A stretch of 63,433 bases of DNA, counting the filler, from Rozella allomycis CSF55 (lineage: Eukaryota), in assembly GCA_000442015.1 (NCBI GenBank). It is 8 parts of 8 records of this genome, joined end to end, with 100 filler letters (N's around TTAATTAATTAA, not from the genome) between each part and the next. Parts side by side here need not be neighbours in the genome. Positions count along the whole stretch, not along the records: positions 56,150 to 59,844 come from KE561010.1; 7 more parts are not named here. The stretch is one strand, 5' to 3'. Below are positions 1,353 to 61,263 of this stretch, one piece after another (the stretch's first letter is position 1; each line of letters starts with the position of its first letter). The translations under genes were made by a program, and so were the position numbers. The notes beneath the pieces were generated by a model. That model searched no databases, was not told the origin of the DNA, and saw only the letters and a program-made list of their open reading frames with translations.

Positions 1353-1531
1353 AATATAACTAGAAAAAGTAAGATGTAAAAGGTTTGTTTATTTAGTAAC
1401 TAAGTCGCTTTTAAAGGTTTCCAGCGTCGGAGACTTTTGAACCAATCACATTTCCTGACTTGATTATGTCTCCGAATCCATCCATAGTTCCATTAATCTT
1501 CTTTATTAAATCGTCGTTAATCATTCTGACA
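1353..1531 (-). repeat. 3' LTR of the copia element
   Basis: Near-identical to 6265-6442; starts TGTCAGAAT on the minus strand, directly after the PPT. Confidence 0.9.
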
Positions 1532-1540
1532 CCCTCCCTA
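1532..1540 (-). promoter_or_regulatory. Polypurine tract (TAGGGAGGG)
   Basis: Purine-rich run abutting the TG start of the 3' LTR on the minus strand. Confidence 0.8.
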
Positions 1541-2610
1541 GATTTCATTACTCCCATTTTCGACCTACGATAATCATTCAATTCTTGACTTAAACCCTTA
1601 GTAAGAATATCACTTATATGATCTTTAGATTTTTCATATTCAATTTTAATAATGCCTTTCTGAACATAATCACGAACATGATGATATCTTTCCTCAATAT
1701 GTTTTGTACGTCCATGCATTGAGGCCGTTTCTGCTAAACTGATCGCACCCGATTATCTTCTCTCAATAAAACACTTTTATTTTCAACCTTTCTCCACATT
1801 TTGATTTCCTTCAACAACTTTACGATCCACAACGCTTCCTTAGTCGCTTCACTTAATGCCATTTACTCCGCCTCTGTCGAACTTAACGCATTCACCCTTT
1901 GAGTTCTTGTCTTCCAACTGATTAAGCAGTTATTTAAATAAAACAAATATCCACCAATAGATTTTCTATCATCCACTTCACTTGCCCAGTTTGAATCACA
2001 ATACCCCACAAAACTAATCTTCCTATTACTATTTCCCTTATCATAACACAACACATAATCAATCGTGTATTTTAAATAACGCATTATGCGCTTTACCAGC
2101 TTCCAATGTAGTTCACCTGGATATTTGCAGTATTTACTAATAATGCCAACCGAATACGCGATGTCTGGCCTGGTCATATTGCTTATCCCCTGTAAATGAC
2201 CAACAGCTTCTCTGTATTTCACTCCTTGCATTTTTAATCTCTCTTCTCCATTCTGTGGACACATAGCGTCTGAATATTTCATACTTGATTCTATAGGGCT
2301 AAATACATCTCGGCAATTCTCCATATTGAATTCTTTCAGCATGTCTAAAATAAATTGTTTTTGACTTANGTGGACAAATAGCGTCTGAATATTTCATACT
2401 TGATTCTATGGGGCTAAAAACATCTCGACAATCCTCCATATTGAATTCTTTCAGCATGTCTAAAATAAATTGTTTCTGNTTACTAATAATGCCAACAGAG
2501 TACGCGATGTCTGGCCTTGTCATATTGCTAATCCACTGTAAATGACCAACAGCTTCTCTGTATTTCACTCCTTGCATTTTTAATCTCTCTTCTTCATTCT
2601 GTGGACANTT
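1540..2610 (-). pseudogene. copia RT C-terminus and RNase H fragments
   Basis: YREAVGHL, TRPDIAYSVG, GYCDSNWA, SSTEAE, HGRTKHI; duplicated across single-N joins. Confidence 0.9.
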
Positions 2611-3890
2611 TGGTTCTACTTCCGCTATTTCTTTTCTAAACTGTGTTTGGAAATCTTCCGTCTTTTGATCAATTTGTGTCTTTATACGTTCTTGAAATGT
2701 TGACTGTCTTTCGCCATTTCCAGTATCTGATTCGGATAATTTCTGAATGGTATTAGTATTTTGGCCAACATTTCCTCCTTGCTCATTTGATTGTTCTTCT
2801 ACTTTCGCTTGTTCATTTAATAAACTATCGAATACCCTATTCAACTTTGTTAATGAATTCAACATGTTTTCGTCATTTACTTTTTGTTCTTTACGGTGAT
2901 CAATAAATTTTACATGGGCTGTTGTAACAACAAAATTTGTTTTCTCCTTTCTTACCCTATATTGTCTAGTGTGTTCATCATATCCGACAAATGTTCCCAT
3001 TATTGCATTCGTGTCTAATTTCTGCCGTGTTTGTTTTGGAATGTGAATAAAGCAACTGCTCCCAATCGGTTTTAATATTTAAACATTTGGTCTTATCCCA
3101 CTGAATGCTTCTTCTGGTGTTATTTCATTTAATATTTTTGTTGGGGTTCGGTTTATCAAATATGCAATTGTGATCGCTAGTTCTCCCCACAATGATTTTG
3201 GCAAATTTGCTTGCTTTAATAAACAGCGAACCATGTTCATTATTGTTCCATTCTTTCGTTCTACAACGCCGTTCATCTCAGGTGTAAAACTATCAGTTTT
3301 TAAATGCTGAATTCCATGTGTTTCACAATAAGTCTTGAATGCATTATTACAAAACTCGCCTCCATTGTCACTTTTGACATTCTTTATTTTGTTCTTGCTC
3401 TGATTCTCAATGATTTTGAAAGGCTCAATCATCTCTTTCGTTGCATCGCTCTTGAGTGTCAATAGTCTCACAAAACATTTTCTAGAGTGATCATCCTCCA
3501 TCGTTAGCATGAATCGTTTCTTGGAAGGGGTTGCTGTTTCCATGGGTCCGACCAAATCCACATGTACCAAATCACCAACGTTTTCTCTTCTTCTCCATTC
3601 CACTCTATTCACGTTTCGCTTCGATTTATTTGTCGCGCAAATGTTGCAAATGCTCATTGGAATATCTTTGGGAAATTCGGGGATTCCAATGACCATTCTG
3701 TGCTTGCTCATGTATCGTAAATAGTCTTCATTAATGTGCCCCAATTTGATGTGCCATTCATCAATATCATTCGACGTTGCTTTATGGGCATTCTCCATTT
3801 CTTCCACCTTAGTCTTTAATATGTATAATGAATTCGCTCTGTCGGCTATTGCAATATTCTTTCCGTTTCGTTTAATATAGCAGCAATCCT
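2610..3890 (-). CDS. copia GAG-pre-integrase, integrase core and SH3-like C-terminal region
   Basis: WHIKLGH...CNIC zinc motif, VHVDLVGP, KSDNGGEF, NGVVERKN (DDE); GTFVGY downstream. Confidence 0.9.
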
Positions 3891-4320
3891 TNCAACGAGT
3901 GACTGTAATGCATTATCTATTGCCTTTTCCCTTTTTTCCTTTTTCCACACTTGTTATTGCTTTTTTGTAGTTCCTTGGAGTTTTGATTTCGCCAACAGTT
4001 AATGCATATTCCCGACCTGATGCTGCCATTTCTGCATAACTCACCGGTTTTAAATTTCGTAAACCAGGTCTTATACTTGCTCGTAAAGTTTCTGGATTTC
4101 TATCACCAAGTTTTGGTTCTACTTCCGCTATTTCTTTTCTAAACTGTGTTTGGAAATCTTCCTTCTTTTGATCAATCTGTTTCTTTATACGTTCTTGAAA
4201 TGTTGACTGTCTTTCGCCTTTTCCAGTATCTGATTCGGATAATTTCTGAATNTTCGGATAATTTTTGAGTAGTATTAGTATTTTGACCAACATTAGTTTC
4301 TTGCTCATTTGCTTTTTCTT

Positions 4321-4900
4321 CTACTTTCGCTTGTTCCATTCATCAATATCATTCGACGTTGCTTTATGGGCTTGCTCCATTTCTTCAACATTAGTCTTTA
4401 ATATGTATAATGACTTTGCTCTTTCGGCTATTGCAATATTCTTTCCGTTTCGTTTAATATAGCAGCAATCCTTTGTAAATTCAACATCAACATTTGCTTG
4501 ACTCATACTTTTAGAAATAGATAATAAATTGTGTTGCAGTTGGGGAATAAAGAATACATTTTGAAGTTTCAATTTATAAAGTTTTCCATGTCCGTCCTCC
4601 GCTTTTATAATGGCTTCACCAACACCTTCCACCACCAATTCCCTATTATCCGCAATAAAAATTTTAGGCTTCTTATTCATATTGATTGTGGTAAATAATT
4701 CCAAATGCGGCGTCATATGTGAACTTGCTCCTGAATCAATGATCCATTTGGTCTTGTTGTCCTGTTGCTCGTCGTATGCCATCAACGCTATTTCCTCATC
4801 AGTGTCGTCATTGTTATTGTGTGACTTAGCTTGTCTTATGCTGCTTGTTTTCTCTGGGCAGTTTCTAATTAAATGGTCACTGCTTCCACATCTAAAACAT
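4321..4900 (-). CDS. copia aspartic protease region
   Basis: WIIDSGASSHM ... NVFFIPQLQHNLLSI, preceded by the CFRCGSSDHLIRNC zinc knuckle. Confidence 0.9.
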
Positions 4901-6137
4901 TTTCTNATTGTTATTGCGTGACTTAGCTTGTCTTATGCTGCTCGTTTTCTCCGGGCAGTTTCTAATTAAATGGTCACTGCTTCCACATCTAAAACATTTT
5001 CTGGGCTCAAATTCCTTCTTCTTGCTGTTCTCAGAACTTTTGACCCTATTCGCTTCCTTTCGTTTTCCACCATTTTCGAATGGTTTCCTATTCAACTTTT
5101 TCTGCGCCTTCAANATTCCTTCTTTTTGCTGTTTTCAGAACTTTTAACCCTATTCGTTTCCTTTCGTTTTCCACCATTTCGAATGGTTTTGTATGTAACT
5201 TTTTCTGCGCCGTCAAAGCCAATTCACTCGACGTTTCTGTTTTGGCTCTTGTTGCCCTTCGTGCTGACTCTTCTTGAATTAGCTGTTGCAACATTTCCAA
5301 TACTGCTCTATGGTCATACTTTTTTGATTCGTCCAGATTATTGAAATAACAATCCACCTTGAACGATAACACTTCATTAATTCCATTCAACATTGCGCCA
5401 ACCAAGTCTTCACTACTAATTTTTCCTCCCACCTTTTTGTAGTCGCTTAACAAATTCTTGTGTATACGATTCTAAATCCATATCTTCTTCCATTTGAAGA
5501 TTCATTAATGCACGTCTTGCAGAGATTTTTAATCTTGCTGATTCGGCACCATATTTGCCTTTCACAAAATTCCANAATACTGCTCTATGGTCATACTTCT
5601 TTGATTCATCCAGATTATTGAAATAACAATCCACCTTAAACGATAACTCTTCATTAATTCCATTCAACAGTGCGCCAACCAAGTCTTCACTACTAATTTT
5701 TCCTCCCACCTTCTTGTAGTCGCTTAACAACTTCTTGTGTTCTCTGATAAACGATTCTAAATCCATATCCTCCTCCATTTGAAGATTCATTAATGCACGT
5801 CTTGCAGATATTTTTAATCTTGCTGATTCGGCACCATATTTGCCTTTCACAAAATTCCACACTTCATCTGCAAACTTGAACTCTTCAACGTCATCACGTT
5901 CGTAACTATCCATTGATAGCTTCAATATTCCTCCCGCTTTCATACATTCTTTGCGAACTTTTTCATTTGCAGTAGCTCCTTTTATTCGGTATGCTTCGTC
6001 CAAAGGTGTCTGCCAAACCCATTGCCGTGAGGTACGCTTCAAAGTCACTTTTCCAACGTAGGCAGGATGCTGATCCTTTCAGTTGCGAGATCTTCCCGCT
6101 TAAATCATTATATCTTGTAGCACTTGAGAGGCTCATA
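4900..6137 (-). CDS. copia gag (mosaic of overlapping copies)
   Basis: Begins MSLSSATRYND at the PBS; gag-like WNFVKGKYG..LMNLQM region; CCHC knuckle CFRCGSSDHLIRNC. Confidence 0.8.
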
Positions 6138-10913: not shown

Positions 10914-11013
10914 NNNNNNNNNNNNNNNNNNNNNNNNNNNNNNNNNNNNNNNNNNNNTTAATTAATTAANNNNNNNNNNNNNNNNNNNNNNNNNNNNNNN
11001 NNNNNNNNNNNNN
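10914..11013. other. Artificial contig linker N-TTAATTAATTAA-N (also 12727-12826, 30839-30938, 32338-32437, 56050-56149, 59845-59944, 61164-61263)
   Basis: Identical 100-nt N/stop-codon spacer repeated seven times. Confidence 0.98.
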
Positions 11014-13218
11014 CATTTACCTTAAAACATAATCAGAGTCATATTAATAAAGTAATTTAAGTAATAAAAATAAAATCTTGTGTCGTCTTAACAGATTGTT
11101 TAAAAATAATCCATGGCTGAGGCGGATAGATATCTGGATATCTCGGACAATAAATAGGATGTAGAGCAACAGAGTGAAAATCAAAGCAAAATTCTTCATA
11201 TAATGCTTGCCTTGATATACTTTATGCATTGCGCTCAANCAGTTGGAAGTTAGAATAATGAGAAAGACATTAATTATTATTTATGTATTTTTGGACCGGT
11301 CAATATAGAGAACTGCTTGCCTGTTCAAACAGGGCAAACGATATCGTTGATAGCATTTTGCGGATATTTCAACGTGTTCTTGAAGTACCTGTTGTGTAAA
11401 AATTCAATATCCTACCGTGTCGCTACCCCGACGCTTGGCAAACCCTTTGGATGTTTCTATTAGACTCTTAGCNCAGACATTAATTAATATTTATGTATTT
11501 TTGGACCGGCCAATAAAGAGAACTGCTTGCCTGTTCAAACTGGGCAAACGATATCGTTGATAGCATTTTGCGAATATTTCAACATGTTCTTTAAGGATCT
11601 GTTGTGTTAAAATTTAATATCCTACCGTGTCACTACCCCGACGCTTGGCAAACCCTTTGGATGTTTCTATTAGACTCTAAGCTGCGCTAAGCGTCTTTGA
11701 TTTCCACGACATCATTTTGTCGACCGCTTACCTTGTCATTTTCGGCTCAATTGTACCGAGATCTTTAAAGTAGGCCCTAAAATCAATTGACCCGATCTGA
11801 AAAGAATTTATCGTTCCCGAATTGACCGGGAGATGGTGTGATCTTCAGCCATAATCATATTTTGAATTTAGAAACCAGTATCTGAGTGTACCAATAACGA
11901 AGGTTTCCCCGCTGCAGTCACTGCCCTTCCACGTCCATATTGGACCCTAAGCAATAATCTTTCATATAACCTTATTGTCAACTAAACATTCCCTAGCTTA
12001 CCGCAAAATAGATGACTAAGACTACCCATAAATATTCCGTGTTTTTTCTGAACATATGCAAGCAGCAGAAATCGGGACAAACACTTTCTAATGCCTCCCG
12101 GAAAGACGGTCGCGGCCTTACTAAACTATTGGGATAGCATCATCTATGATTTCCAACTGGCATCCGATTTCATTGTCCCCACGATATAGGTACATGCCAC
12201 TTACCTGTAATGTACGGGTTTCCCAAAGTTGAGACGACAAATTACCCGAAGCAAATACACGGACATCGAAAATTAATAGTCCTTTTACTGTTTACGCTTT
12301 TTCTTCAGTCTGGCCATTGCATGCGTACATATCCACGACATTTGCATAAATTATCGCTTCATTTGACAGTTTCTGTTTGAATTTCAAGCAAACAGAAGGA
12401 ATCTTTNATTTGACAGTTTCTGTTTGAATTTCAAGCAAACAGAAGGAATCTTTATAGAAATATTAATATCCTTACTTGAATCATCAGAAATGTTGTTTCA
12501 CCTGTATTCACAGTCACGAGATGTACATCTTACTCTAATGTTGAGTGCGAAAAATATCATCTGGCCTCGGATAATAGCTGTCCCTGTTACATTCAAGGAT
12601 GTGTAAAGTTCAAAATCCACCAAGGGTTAACTTTATCGCGCCTTTCATGCCTACATTTCTGCAAATTTAGATTATCTACCCTGGCTCTGGACTCTGGATG
12701 TTAGGATAAGAGTGCATTTTTTCAATNNNNNNNNNNNNNNNNNNNNNNNNNNNNNNNNNNNNNNNNNNNNTTAATTAATTAANNNNNNNNNNNNNNNNNN
12801 NNNNNNNNNNNNNNNNNNNNNNNNNNAAGTCGGGGTAATGAAGAAGTATGATTGGGGGATGCTGGGATGCACCAAAATGTCACATGTCACGTCAAATTTT
12901 ATGTACATTTGAGAGGGTTAGCGTTTAGTCTAAATATATCTTTCTACTTAGAATATTTGAAAAAAATNGCGATTCGCAAATCTTAAATTATACCAGTAAT
13001 CTACAAAACATTTCGCTTAAAAGTTAAACGACTCTAAAACTTTCATAAGCCGGCTCAACAACCTGAAAGTTATGACGAGATATCAAGCAAGTAGACTTCC
13101 TCACAATTTATTTACTTCGTGTAATTTATTGTCGACCATTGTACCCGGAATAAATAGACCTAGAATACTGAATAGCTAAAGCTTAGTCGCATTCCTATAA
13201 ATGGGGTAGATATATTTA

Positions 13219-18258: not shown

Positions 18259-19411
18259 TTAAAATATTGGCTTACGATCGACAAGACCAACTTGATTTTT
18301 ACGTTTAAATGCGAATGTACAGTCTTCGGGATAGATTATGTACAAATCACCGTTGCTCACATTAACACCAATGCCATTGCCATGAGGGCTTTCATCGTAC
18401 CATATGCCACACACCTTGTCATTAATCTTGTTTTTAAAATGAGCTAATAATGCATCAATAATGTTATTGTCATTTTCCAAATTTAACTTGCAACTTATTT
18501 GTTTTAGTACCTTCTTCGGATTGCATGATAAGGAAGCGCAGTGAATTGGAACATGACCGTCAATCTCGCATGCATGTATTATGCTGCTGGACTCTGGAAA
18601 AGTTATAAGAGTCCTTCGAAAATTCTCTAAATTATATGACATTGTCGATTCTAAACTTTGTTTGCCGAAACCAAACTTTTTAGATTTCCATGAAGTTTTG
18701 ATTCGCGTTATACACTGCAACATCAAATAAGAAATGCAAATCTTCAACGTCGCGGTAAGGAATTAGTAGAGGCATGCGGCCAGTTTTCGAAAGAATATTA
18801 TGTACTCCTTGACCCGTCAACCCATCGTTTTCATATATTGGATATTCAACTTCATATAGTAAATTTATCAACCAACGCACCAGTGCCATACAATGTTCAA
18901 TGGAAGGGAACACAATGTCTGGATAGATCAAATGCAAACTAAATTTTTCTGGGCTGCATGCATCTAGAACAATAACATTGTCAACAATACGTTCTGCAGT
19001 TATTATTCCCATGGACTTCAATATTTCCGTAAGGTACCAATTGAGGCTACTAACCACCTTATCTGGCGTTACTAATTCTTTAAAAGTATCATTAACAGAA
19101 TCGTATACACAGTCAATATCAAGATAGAACTTTACAGGACATCCTTTGCGAATAATTTCATAGCAAGTCTTATTCTCTGCGCTCAAGGATGAGTAATAAT
19201 TGTAAAACGTTTCTAAATTTGTTGCACCAAATTTTCGAGCCCCAGACGAATTCACCTCCCTCCCTATTATCAAAGCGTCATCCAGTATATCCAGGGCACT
19301 TTTTAAGCATGTTTTGAGACTCCCCTGCCACGTGATGTCCGCTCGTAACTTTTTCAATTGAAAGAGCTCAATCGCTGACGGTTTAACCAAAGGTCTTTTG
19401 GAGTTTGACAT
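18259..19411 (-). CDS. PrimPol-clade archaeo-eukaryotic primase-polymerase (this copy has a 5-bp frameshift at ~18690)
   Basis: CYEII..PVKFYLDID (motif I), KFSLHLI (motif II SxH), FDVAVYNANQNF-RLWKS (motif III); no evident introns. Confidence 0.88.
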
Positions 19412-19526
19412 GAAATTATTCCGATATTTTGTCGGCGACTTTTATGATTCATCGGTAATTATTTTATTGGTCCCAACACATGCTTTTGTTCTTACTCTTG
19501 CTAATTTTAAAATTACCGGGCTTTTC

Positions 19527-30838: not shown

Positions 30839-31050
30839 NNNNNNNNNNNNNNNNNNNNNNNNNNNNNNNNNNNNNNNNNNNNTTAATTAATTAANNNNNN
30901 NNNNNNNNNNNNNNNNNNNNNNNNNNNNNNNNNNNNNNGTGATAAATTAATTAGTAAATTTCCATTTAATTAATTAAAATAATTGGCAATTAATTTAATA
31001 TTCTTGACATTAAATGATCGTAAAATAGATGAAATATTATTCATATAGAA

Positions 31051-32060: not shown

Positions 32061-32437
32061 TGACAACCAACTCGATATTCGTCCTCACGAGATGCCTGTC
32101 ACAAATCAATAACATTGCTTTCTTCTGGCTTTTCTTTTTTCCAATGTCGTGCTGCCTGACGGATACTATCGTAACTAGAATCTTTATGCAGAACTAAAAA
32201 TTTGTCATAAGTTTCAAATGATTTGATAAAAAAGTATACCGCCTTTGCTGATTCATAGGAACCTTTTAACTTTGATGTCTTGTTAACCCACGTTTTTCAC
32301 CACTGCAATGGTGGAATAAGAACATCATTTGGAAATCNNNNNNNNNNNNNNNNNNNNNNNNNNNNNNNNNNNNNNNNNNNNTTAATTAATTAANNNNNNN
32401 NNNNNNNNNNNNNNNNNNNNNNNNNNNNNNNNNNNNN

Positions 32438-47629: not shown

Positions 47630-49972
<2,343 letters not shown>

Positions 49973-55940: not shown

Positions 55941-56149
55941 AGTCTTATTTGAATTAGTTATTTAGAGAACAGAATTTAATAATTTAAAAATGATAGTTTG
56001 GAGAGAATTAAAAATAATCATAAGATTGTGAAAGAATGTTTATTAATTCNNNNNNNNNNNNNNNNNNNNNNNNNNNNNNNNNNNNNNNNNNNNTTAATTA
56101 ATTAANNNNNNNNNNNNNNNNNNNNNNNNNNNNNNNNNNNNNNNNNNNN

Positions 56150-59100
56150 TATTAGGTACCTTTGAATAGTGGAATATCTTGAGCCAAAAATTTAGGCAAA
56201 TTAACATCAATAATAGATCTCAACACGAGAATATTTTCATTTTCATTTGGATATTTTTGTTTTAAATTTCCAGCAGCTGAAATAACAGATTTAACTGCTC
56301 TCATTCCATAATCATAATGATCCTGTGATGATAACTGTTCTGAACATAATCTATACGTTGCTGTTATCTTGACTGCTAATCCTTTGGCACCTCTAAAGCC
56401 AAATGAATACAATGATATTTCTGCTATCAATGTATAATTAGGCACCATCTTTGTTACATTTAATATAATTTAGGATTACCATTGCTACTGGTCTAAATAA
56501 TGCTTTCAAATTGTCTGGTAATTCTGATCTACCAGCATACCCACTTACATTAAACTCAATTAATAATATTACGGATTCATTGTAATAAAGACAGCACAAT
56601 GATCATTTAATTTTAATTCAGTTCCTTCAAACACAAATGTTACTGAATGATTTATTTTAGCTCTTTGTATTGTCAATATCTGTTGAGCAACTACTGAAAG
56701 TACTTCCAAATCTACATTCAAGATGAATAAATTAGTTTACCTATATAACATCCTATCATCTTAGTTTACCTATTCTGTTAAATTCATCAAAACATATCCA
56801 TGACCCACTACTAGCTATTCCCTTGAAAAACTTTCCCATGCTAATGTAATCTAAACTATCTGAACAATTATAAACAACACAAAACATTCCCAATGCTTTG
56901 GCTAAATCTTTAACTGATTCTGTCTTTCCTGTTCCTATCAATCTCAAATCTATAAATGAAGTACCAGCTGGACCTTCAGGTGCGCCACCTAGATTCAATT
57001 GTAGAGCACCAAACAATGTTCTGTAGCAACGATCAGTCAATGGTGTAATAACCAATCTACTAGTATTACCTTGATAAAGTAGTAGAAACTGTATTTTACC
57101 TTTAATGTTAAATAGATATCATTGTTACCTTTGATTTTAAATAGATACCCCACTTACCTATTCTATTTCAGTTTTACCACACTTACCTATTCTATTTCAA
57201 TTTTACTTCACTTACCTAAATACTCAAATCCATATGGCAAACTAGAATTCATCATCTTAACAACAATCCCATCAACACTATCAAAATAATACCTCAACTG
57301 ACTCGTCCACTCAAAACTAGTAATCTCCTCCACCTTCATCTCCACCAGCTGCCCAACAACTTCCTTTGCATGCACATCAATAACAATCTGCGCCTCCATA
57401 TTAATCCTATTCAATTTGCTCAAATTCCCACGAACCATATCAACATATTTATTCAACCGCTCTGTACTCTTCACCAAATACTTGCTCAATGAGTCCTTTT
57501 CCTTTTTGTTTGAAATCGCTTCCTCAACTTCCATGGTCCAGTACGCTTGACTCGTCGCTATTATTATTTGGCCAGGCCATTTTAAAACCCATTTGCTCCT
57601 TTCTGTTACCAGATAGTCATTGTAACATTCATTGGAGATTGTTTTGAGACTTGATATCATTGTTTTTTCTACATCCACTAGCCATCTTTCTACCGCTCCA
57701 TTGGTCTTTGATGTATTGATTGTTGAATCAAATTTAACATACTCTTTCTCTGCTGAATACTTTTTCAAGTTTATTTCTATTTATTTACCATTCCTGTTAT
57801 ATCATAGTTTGGTTGGAACTCTAATGCATTTAACCCTTCAAAACACTTCTTTAAATGTGGTTGGATTCTGGTGCAGTCTCTAGTTTCAGATAAGATTAGC
57901 AACATTTCATCATTTGAAAGAAAAAAGAATCTTGGAAAGAATAATCTCTTTGTTTCCAAATACTGATTCAACCCTTATTTCATGTACACCCATTTCATTA
58001 CCTATATCACTTCAACTGCAACTAAATTACCTTTCATGACAATCTCTAAATCTTCATTGCTCTGCTTCAGCTTGTTCAACATATCCTCAATTTCAATAAC
58101 CTTCAAAACATGACAATCACTCGCCACAAGCTTAATCAACTCTCTCAACGTAGAATCAACCAACTGAAACTTTTTTCCTTCAACAGGCATCTGTCTCATA
58201 ATATCCTCACTTCCAAAGATCGGCTCCAAATACAACCAACTACTCTGCACATTCAACCATTCATCCAATATCTCTTGAATCAATATCAACTTGTTCTCCC
58301 ATTCTTTAGCTTCACTCTCCAATGCCTTGATAAACGGCGATCCCCTCATCGTCTGTGTTTTAACCAAATGGTCATCCAACAATGTCTGAATATCTTCAAC
58401 TGAACTCAGAATCTTTGTGCCTGTTTCTCTATAATCAATCAACACAAATTCAATCGGTTGCCACTCTGATATCATCTTGGAAAACGCCTTTTCAAACGAA
58501 TATTCTTTACTCGCTCGCACAGTAATCTCTTCAAATTTATCCATAAAAGACTCCAACTTCATCTCCAATACCATCTCCAAACTAGTCTTGTCATCAGGAT
58601 GGAATGAATAGCCAACTATTCTACTCATCTCCTCCCAATGTCTATCTCTCAACCCCGGATTGCTCAGTATTTGTATTATCGGCAAATTCAACTTGAACTT
58701 TTCCAACGATTCTCTCGTCTTATTCGTAATCTCCAATGGCAGGGGTTTATCTTGAAAGACTTGCGATATTTGATATAAATTTTTATACATTGTTGAAACT
58801 TGCTCTTCAATCTCATCAGAATTCAACTTCAAAATTGATCCAGTCATCCACAAACTCAAATTCTTTTGAAACTCAATACACGTCTGATAAAGAGTTAGAA
58901 ATGGTTTCGCGTTGCTCATTGTTTCATTCAGCAACGGATACTTGGTCACCTCCCATCCAAACACATTCTCCTCTCTATTAAATTCTTTCACTCTCTCTTC
59001 CAACACCTCCAATTTATTCTCAATCTTTTGCACAATCTTCAAATACTTTCCAACTTCATTCATCTCCCCAAACGTTTTAAACTCTTCAACCTGCTTGGAA

Positions 59101-59844
59101 TACTCTTCCAACTCATTAACCAAATTCTCTCTTCTTTCTCTCAATCTGTCTTGATTCTCAATCTTTGATTCACGCAAATTCTTCTCCACTTGCTCAAACA
59201 TCGGATCAATCTTTTGGGGCCATCCAAACAACTCGCTATTAATCTCAAAATCTTCCTTTTTCAAATCACAATGATCAATCATCAACACAAGTCTTTCTAA
59301 CATCTTTCATTCATTCTTACCTCCTTCTAGAATCCTCCAACTGATCATTCAAATCTCTCATATCTTTATTCTTCACTTGCTCCACAAACTGTTGCAACTC
59401 CAACATCTCATCAATCCCATTAGGTCTATTCAACATTTTCTCATATATTTTCTCAAACGTTTCTATTATCCTATCATTACAATCATCACACCCCCTTACT
59501 GTCTGCTAACATTCATATTATCCTTGGACACTTTATCACACGTTATCTCTATAAAATACTCACATCTCTCATTCATCACCTTAATCATCTTTCTCTTCCC
59601 CATCAATTCACCTTACCTCATCCTGATGCAATATTATATTCCGAAAATTCACATCTTCTCCAAACGAATACAGAATTTGATTAGATTCCCTTCGATACTT
59701 TTGTATTTCCTAAATTTCCTAAATATCAATCAAAAATACCGCAAATTGTCTATCAATTGAAACATCTGTTTTCAACAATTCTTTCAAATCACTTTCAGCA
59801 CTCCCATTAATAATCGCCTTGAATCTATCAAACTCTTTAATATA
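56150..59844 (-). CDS. Axonemal (inner-arm type) dynein heavy chain fragment: tail/linker and AAA1
   Basis: [72 protein letters not shown]. Confidence 0.93.
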
Positions 59845-59944
59845 NNNNNNNNNNNNNNNNNNNNNNNNNNNNNNNNNNNNNNNNNNNNTTAATTAATTAA
59901 NNNNNNNNNNNNNNNNNNNNNNNNNNNNNNNNNNNNNNNNNNNN

Positions 59945-61163
59945 AATCCGTCACCTCCATATGTAAAAGAATTAAACGGATTAGATGAAAGAAATATTCA
60001 AACTTTAAAATCAATGCCTTCTAGTATGTTAACTCAAGTTCAATTACCTGGACAATATGAGCCTTATGCTATTGTATATGCTGCATTTATTAAAAATAGA
60101 ACTAAGAGAAATGATCAAGAAGTTACACACTATGAAACTATTTATAATCATGAACCAAGAAATATTGTTCATTCCTTTGGGTGTCTAGTTGTTATCTATC
60201 TTTTTCCTGAAAAACGCCCAAAAAAGCTTAAGACTACGAAAGGAAAGTTTGGTTTGTTTTTAGGCATGAAGGGAAACAATATCTATAAGTGTTTTAATTT
60301 TGAAACAAAGAAAGTGTTAGAATATTATCATGTTGATTTTTATCCTAAATTTTTTCCTGGATTGACCGATTCAAAGTTAAAAGGGGAGAATTCATATCAT
60401 TATTAGAAAACGCATTTCAAAGTGACACAATTGTACAACGATATGAGACTGAAGCTTTAACTTTGAACTCTAGTAAGTTGAATATCACTCTACCAAGACC
60501 TATAAAAGAAAATATTAAATGGCCTTCTCAATCTAAATCAAATTATCCAAAACAAAATAATGTTTTAATCAAACGATCTGATTGTCGATCTCCGCCAAAA
60601 TCAGTAAAACAACCTATGGAAGGACCATTTAGAGAATATTTTATAACAGCCATGTATGAGGAAATGGGATCTTTAAAGAAACATAATACATGGAAAGTTG
60701 TCACTCCACCTCCTAATAGAAAGGTAATTCGATCAAAATGGGTATTTGATTATAAAGTTGATCAACATGGGTATATAGAAAGATTTAAGGATCGCTTGGT
60801 TGCTATGGGTAACCAACAGGTTGAAGATATAGATTATAAATCCACTTTTTCCCCTGTCGTCAAAATCCAATCTGTTAGATATATTCTTTCTCTTTCTGTT
60901 TTACAAGGGTGGATCATTGAACAAATTGATATTAATACTGCGTTTCTATATGGCAAANCGTTGCTATATGGAAAACTTTCAGAACCCAATTTCATGAAGC
61001 TCCCAACTGGTTTTGAAGAATATCATAAAGAAACAAAAGTTGAAATGGTTGCTCAATTACTTCAATCTCTTCATGGTTTACATCAAGCATCGTCGGAATG
61101 TTACAAAACTTTTAGTCAATATGTGTCTGATTCTGGACTAATTGCCTGCAAAAGTGAACCATG
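59945..61163 (+). pseudogene. Second copia pol fragment (integrase C-terminus and RT)
   Basis: FGCLV..GLFLG; AMYEEM..NTW..SKWVF..RLVAMG..TFSPVV..IDINTAFLYG; stops and frameshifts. Confidence 0.85.
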
Positions 61164-61263
61164 NNNNNNNNNNNNNNNNNNNNNNNNNNNNNNNNNNNNN
61201 NNNNNNNTTAATTAATTAANNNNNNNNNNNNNNNNNNNNNNNNNNNNNNNNNNNNNNNNNNNN

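Follow-up and report, generated by a model that had tools for sequence, protein, structure and literature searches.

Abutting arrays of minimal introns in an axonemal dynein heavy chain gene of Rozella allomycis: candidates for removal through zero-length exons

How is an intervening sequence of 146 nucleotides (nt) removed from a gene whose single introns are all about 30 nt long? This question is raised by a dynein locus of Rozella allomycis CSF55, a cryptomycotan that parasitizes the water mould Allomyces and forms flagellated zoospores. The stretch of DNA analyzed here, which we term the window, is a rough eukaryotic draft of 63,433 bases that includes 878 N. The locus lies on the contig at positions 56150..59844, which encodes on its minus strand the linker and AAA1 part of a DNAH7-like inner-arm axonemal dynein heavy chain and carries 11 intron sites, with a twelfth cut by the contig end. 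The original prediction held that one of its introns consists of five abutting 29-30-nt GT-AG units, each of a size typical of the window, joined by AG|GT with no exon between them and related in part by tandem duplication. All of these points were borne out. The observation is moreover stronger than first stated, because the dynein contig contains three such arrays and not one.

The five-unit array occupies positions 57070-57215 on the minus strand, exactly 146 nt, with AG|GT at offsets 29, 58, 87 and 116 that divide it into units of 29, 29, 29, 29 and 30 nt. On that strand, unit 1 (57187..57215) and unit 2 (57158..57186) both read GTAAGT...AATAG, unit 3 (57129..57157) reads GTAAGT...CAAAG, unit 4 (57100..57128) reads GTAACA...TAAAG, and unit 5 (57070..57099), which is in frame and stop-free, reads GTAAAA...TCAAG. 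The internal junctions are thus ATAG|GTAAGT (twice), AAAG|GTAACA and AAAG|GTAAAA. AGGTAA is present at all six boundaries of the array; it occurs at the sixth as well because the downstream exon itself starts with GTAATA.

The outer limits of the array coincide with exon ends defined by homology. The upstream exon (57216..57759, minus strand) ends in ...PYGFEYL followed by base 1 of a Gly codon, its last bases being TTTAG, and the downstream exon (56965..57069, minus strand) encodes (G)NTSRLVITP...GGAPEGPAG, so that the Gly codon is split in phase 1 between the two. Three metagenomic relatives, P0001, P0006 and P0007, read ...YEYLGN(S/T)(G/A)RLVITP uninterrupted at this site, and the 146 nt therefore have no counterpart in the protein. 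The second array (57974-58030, minus strand) consists of 29 + 28 nt between ...EIVMK-G and G-LNQYLE. The third (56712-56769, minus strand) consists of 29 + 29 nt between ...FDEFNRI-D and D-LEVLSVV, and both of its units start with GTAAACTAA. All 9 array units start with GTAA, end with (A/T)AG and measure 28-30 nt.

Removal of 17 units at the 11 dynein sites yields a stop-free product of 1062 amino acids that includes the P-loop GPAGTGKT. This product is collinear with residues 158-1218 of P0001, at 68% identity and with 1 gap in 1062 aligned columns. That the product is open and collinear implies that no unit can be part of the mRNA or stand in place of coding sequence. P0001, a metagenome protein of 1586 amino acids, is the closest dynein relative (64% identity over the query exon). 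It is encoded by one open frame across the region of the 11 Rozella sites and so has none of these introns. Protein searches returned no dynein relative closer than P0001, and no orthologous array for comparison. The homologues carry Pfam PF08393/PF12774 (DHC_N2/AAA_6) and the name 'dynein heavy chain 7, axonemal', and the best named matches are DNAH7, DNAH3 and DNAH12; on these matches the host gene is classed as an inner-arm, DNAH7-like axonemal dynein heavy chain. The first dynein intron (59710-59739, minus strand) has two possible acceptors 9 nt apart, giving 21 or 30 nt, which arise from a 9-nt direct repeat; homology fits both.

The length of the array units acquires meaning from the other introns of the window. 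An inventory of all GT..AG intervals of 15-300 nt flanked by open sequence, which yielded 5758 candidates and a flat length spectrum, was replaced by a junction-by-junction reading. By this reading 37 intron units are definable, all of 26-31 nt with a mode of 29. The 36 tabulated units measure 26 (1 unit), 27 (7), 28 (6), 29 (15), 30 (5) or 31 nt (2); every one begins with GTA, and 29 begin with GTAA. Counted by site, there are 31, made up of 28 single introns, all of 26-31 nt, and the 3 arrays. The three long intervening sequences of the window, of 146, 58 and 57 nt, are exact arrays, which supports a very narrow range of intron length. The dynein contig accounts for 8 single introns and 9 array units, which are backed by homology; 19 single introns lie elsewhere, in genes for Dus, a coiled-coil protein, a Sec16-like protein, MCM5, trehalase and a WD40 protein and in one unnamed gene. 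Among these 31 sites of one window, in a search that favoured short GTA introns, no verified intron measured 32-56 nt, and every long one was an array. The S23 introns of Rozella have been put at ~30 nt (PMC6349667) and its intron density at 2.5 per kb (PMC8476143).

One public gene model departs from this range. A 203-amino-acid MCM5 exon has as its best match 'MCM-domain-containing protein [Rozella allomycis CSF55]', and two further exons match at 94/94 and 146/147 residues. At 49296-49345 (minus strand) the public protein model removes 50 nt. The alternative is a 26-nt GTAATT..GATAG intron at 49319-49344, which is the 37th unit, additional to the 36 tabulated. With it the frame is maintained and 8 residues are regained, which 10/10 of the aligned fungal homologues have. 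From this alignment, the 50-nt public intron appears better read as one of 26 nt.

Could the arrays have arisen by chance in AT-rich DNA? First-order Markov simulations of the window (n = 200), scored for abutting GTA..AG units of 26-32 nt, gave chains of at least 3 units at 0.015 per window and no chain of at least 4 units in 200 simulated windows; a single chain of 5 stands in the real window, and for this chain chance is excluded. A stricter three-unit pattern matches the window only within the five-unit array (2 overlapping matches) and matches none of 100 dinucleotide shuffles. Two-unit chains occur 2.2 times per simulated window, and the two-unit arrays are credible only because they are positioned exactly at homology-defined junctions.

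Comparison of the units with one another indicates how the five-unit array was built. Identity is 26 of 29 positions between units 1 and 2 and 22 of 29 between units 3 and 4. When units from different sites were paired, none of the 618 pairs reached either value, and TRF reports units 1-2 and units 3-4 as period-29 repeats. The tandem duplication that had been suspected for these two pairs is thereby upheld. The resemblance of units 1-2 to unit 3 is borderline (5% of the null pairs reach the score), as is that between the two units of the third array (7%). Unit 5 compared with units 1-4, and the first unit of the second array compared with its neighbour, look like unrelated introns, with 26-94% of the 618 null pairs reaching their scores. 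Over all 618 different-site pairs the best core score is 15 of ~24 and the mean 9.4, so that within the window the only units that are alike are neighbours in the five-unit array. Introner-like elements were accordingly rejected for the window, as dispersed units share no similarity. A plain minisatellite inside one intron was also rejected: three of the five units are not alike, all boundaries are AG|GTAA, and the units, at 29-30 nt, have the modal intron length. The predicted RNA fold of the five-unit array (-21.8 kcal/mol, z -1.49) is equalled by 13 of 200 shuffles and has no special structure.

The array would thus have grown by tandem duplication of unit length. Slippage or unequal exchange is the favoured route, because the 6-nt AGGTAA recurs at each unit boundary with a spacing of 29-30 nt. 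The age of the sites themselves can be approached through the ends of open reading frames (ORFs) in relatives. The ORF of P0128, a metagenomic relative, ends exactly at EYLG|, one of 141 informative ORF ends, and the ORFs of three other relatives end at or near the second-array site (3 of 141). These few coincidences hint that the arrays probably occupy old intron positions rather than being new insertions. ORFs of other relatives stop at Rozella sites near GPAG|TGKT, ITMNP| and RPVAM|, which are therefore shared old intron positions.

How, then, are the arrays removed? Our judgment, a little better than even, is that these 146 nt, at one old intron position of the dynein gene, represent five minimal spliceosomal introns that are each autonomous. 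Stepwise removal through zero-length exons is the best-supported reading, and one in which we place slightly more belief than doubt. The splice sites would pair across the intron, so that each donor would find its acceptor 29-30 nt downstream, at the distance normal here, rather than 58-146 nt away. The units would be removed singly, and each internal AG|GTAA would act as a zero-length exon. Excision of a unit would join the upstream AG to the next GTAA and so restore a normal 5' splice site. Adjacent units share a phosphodiester bond, which would preclude simultaneous catalysis, and any order of removal would lead to an identical mRNA. At the level of sequence, fusing the TTTAG end of the upstream exon to any of the later units produces TTAG|GTAA.., with an unchanged donor context. 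Unit 5 and the units of the second array, although dissimilar to their neighbours, keep GTAA, (A/T)AG and a length of 28-30 nt. This favours the view that each unit is a working intron, since old units would not be expected to have kept both signals and length if they were neutral sequence inside one long intron.

Other explanations were weighed against this one. We regard as very improbable an origin in a mis-assembly of the draft or in a decaying pseudogene. The draft is admittedly rough, with contigs glued by linkers, many N, and single N followed by duplicated stretches. But no N lies within or near the array, the units differ among themselves, and a run of another study (X5) provides an independent 2013-nt contig that spans 56681-58562 with 0 differences and 0 gaps. 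In addition, all sampled words are present in the runs of two samples. The arrays are real DNA, and the second source is an independent DNA sample, probably of the same strain. A dead gene is at odds with a spliced frame that stays open for 1062 codons at 68% identity to a relative. An array might alternatively be a store of alternative splice sites giving protein variants, such that retention of unit 5, for example, would add 10 residues before AAA1. Retention of unit 5 alone (30 nt) does keep the frame open, but retention of any of units 1-4 leads to a frameshift and to stop codons within ~25 codons; P0001, P0006 and P0007 have no insertion at this place, and the alignment to P0001 contains a single gap. 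We consider this explanation very unlikely, if slightly less so than an artefact.

A more serious rival, which we hold to be possible but doubtful, is removal in one step. The sequences of 146, 57 and 58 nt would then be ordinary introns cut at their outermost donor and acceptor, and the internal AG|GTAA would be relics of duplication with no role in splicing. A length of 146 nt is easily handled by most eukaryotic spliceosomes, and the recent duplicates among the units need no selection to explain their intact signals. One-step removal must account, however, for the dissimilar unit 5 and 29 + 28-nt pair with their retained GTAA, (A/T)AG and 28-30-nt length. An AGGTAA in register is expected ~0.002 times in a random AT-rich interior of 57 nt (by arithmetic from base frequencies), and not one of the 28 single sites exceeds 31 nt. 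A consensus acceptor at the standard distance would, furthermore, have to be ignored four times.

Several observations weigh against stepwise removal. Units 1-2 and 3-4 duplicated so recently that their internal signals would still be intact however the array is removed. The 19 introns tabulated from other genes rest on frame continuity and consensus, and a public protein model supports only 3, those of MCM5. None of the 20 sites outside dynein is an array, all three arrays being in one gene; by our own arithmetic the probability that all three would fall among the 11 dynein sites of 31 is ~0.04, and the dynein gene may be special. No positioned branch-point motif was definable in the units: TGAW is weakly enriched (20 of 36 units against 8.4 in shuffles), and its positions are scattered. 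No RNA run matched the dynein contig itself; 13 short pieces from RNA run X10 (share 0.00), with 85-99% likeness and loose ends, are conserved dynein pieces of other organisms. In microsporidia, which are related, an intron of 76 nt is reported to be spliced better than short ones (PMC6349667), which is equally a point in favour of one-step removal and implies that a short upper limit is not a rule of the lineage. Finally, a pattern scan for units of 28-30 nt revealed no further convincing arrays among the metagenome matches listed.

That scan required three units in a row (AGGTAA N21-23 WAGGTAA N21-23 WAGGTAA N22 WAG) and was tuned to the 28-30-nt size class. It found at least 110 stretches in metagenome contigs and 96 in prokaryote genomes, which served as the control. 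After filtering, 17 of the 135 metagenome matches listed and 12 of the 100 control matches were non-repetitive. At least 40 open codons on both sides were present for 2 metagenome matches and 1 control match among those listed, and these look like coding repeats. The two collections do not differ after filtering, which argues, though weakly, that there are no further arrays in them. Four loci with multiple matches were read and rejected as intron arrays, three being microsatellites of the (GGTAAA)n type and one a 29-nt minisatellite. The three (L013, L014 and L047) are kilobase-long imperfect arrays in metagenome contigs, and the copies of the fourth (L029) start with GTAAAC and end with TAG; all four mimic the intron-array pattern but are plain repeats.

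A broader proposal can be built on stepwise removal. The Rozella spliceosome might accept only introns of ~26-31 nt, so that intervening sequence would lengthen only in whole-intron quanta. Introns would bud by slippage of unit length at AGGTAA, persist as arrays of autonomous units with zero-length exons between them, and be removed serially throughout the genome. We offer this only tentatively; a hard length limit of the spliceosome would be drawn from 31 sites in one window. If it were true, recursive splicing would be obligatory genome-wide and introns would have a new route of multiplication. If the units are spliced singly, the five-unit array would hold the densest zero-length exons known, four in 146 nt, and would be the first case of recursive splicing that serves a spliceosome tuned to minimal introns and not very long introns. 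The arrays would then offer a natural test for an upper as well as a lower limit of intron length in tiny-intron organisms, and whole-intron tandem duplication would provide a nearly neutral route to intron addition. Gene-finding programs will call each such array one long intron, which would distort intron-length statistics; side peaks near 58, 87, 116 and 146 nt are predicted in the public annotation.

The remainder of the window provides the setting of the dynein contig. Seven linkers of the form N44-TTAATTAATTAA-N44, at 10914-11013, 12727-12826, 30839-30938, 32338-32437, 56050-56149, 59845-59944 and 61164-61263, carry stop codons in all six frames and join separate contigs, and gene order across them is therefore meaningless. 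The standard genetic code suits the window, as an ORF of 1423 amino acids stays open. Single N occur at ~50795 and ~62946, and the stretch preceding each is repeated directly after it; in this way ~130 amino acids of the Sec16-like ORF and a stretch of a PH-domain ORF are present twice with small differences. These duplicated stretches are probably uncollapsed overlaps or alleles of the draft. Copia-type pieces of long terminal repeat retrotransposons, with RVT_2, a retroviral SH3-like domain and a copia-type gag, lie at 59945-61161 (plus strand) and 1414-6078 (minus strand). A 253-amino-acid ORF at 18683-19441 (minus strand) shows similarity, just above the cut-off, to the C962R primase family in its AEP domain (Pfam PF23162, E 4e-5), and could be what is left of a virus-like or mobile element. 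An Rfam search of the whole window gave 0 matches.

With which known systems may the arrays be compared? Paramecium and other ciliates have genomes with only tiny introns. Such genomes are also known from dicyemids, with a median intron of 27 bp (PMC6543705), and from myxozoans (PMC13644364), and they share with Rozella a narrow length distribution near the lower limit for spliceosomal introns. Abutting arrays are not mentioned in the tiny-intron papers searched (including PMC13644364, PMC6543705, PMC12862383 and PMC13685798). More generally, we found no description of dense abutting arrays of minimal introns in the literature searched, which leaves out most subscription papers and supplements.

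Drosophila and mammals have zero-nucleotide exons, or ratchet points, in long introns (bioRxiv 10.1101/224170; PMC8605326). In both those introns and the Rozella arrays a 3' splice site stands directly against a 5' splice site (AG|GTAAGT) within the intervening sequence, in Rozella at four junctions. Once the upstream piece is out, a donor is formed again, and no trace is left in the mRNA, which for Rozella applies at the sequence level. The Drosophila and mammalian introns, however, span many kilobases, with one or few ratchet points and a pyrimidine tract, whereas Rozella has four junctions in 146 nt between A-rich pieces of minimal-intron size that are known here from DNA. As in recursive splicing elsewhere, the host introns are unusually long for the organism (146, 58 and 57 nt against 26-31 nt), although in absolute terms they are far shorter than any described case.

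Parallels also come from fungi. A 336-nt intron of Schizosaccharomyces pombe SPNCRNA.445 uses a zero-length exon (bioRxiv 10.1101/226894), and a 375-nt intron of Cryptococcus neoformans BOT1 is split by one into 210 + 165 nt (bioRxiv 10.1101/224170). These cases share with Rozella the fungal lineage, splice sites that pair across short introns, and abutting introns annotated as one. They differ in being single pivots in unusually long introns, proved by spliceosome profiling, whereas the Rozella arrays comprise 2-5 units of standard length with visible tandem duplication. In complex introns of Lipomyces, the sites chosen first define the smallest possible intron (PMC7138796). The same paper describes stwintrons, which likewise undergo consecutive standard splicing reactions, and proposes small duplications of the donor element as their origin. 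In a stwintron, however, the internal intron interrupts the donor, branch or acceptor of the external one and the order of removal is obligatory (PMC7138796). The arrays were therefore rejected as stwintrons, as each Rozella unit is complete from its GTAA to its (A/T)AG, and neighbours meet end to end with no overlap.

The growth of the arrays, finally, resembles the model of intron gain by AGGT-bounded duplication. In its classical form, exon sequence is duplicated and gives rise to a first intron. In Rozella it would be a whole existing intron that is duplicated, giving a second intron at the same position. In both, an AGGT-bounded tandem duplication creates a new spliceable unit, and duplication of an AGGT-containing segment is listed among intron gain mechanisms in two papers (PMC12862383, PMC13685798). 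If removed stepwise, the Rozella arrays would be a variant of recursive splicing at zero-length exons, set in a genome of minimal introns.

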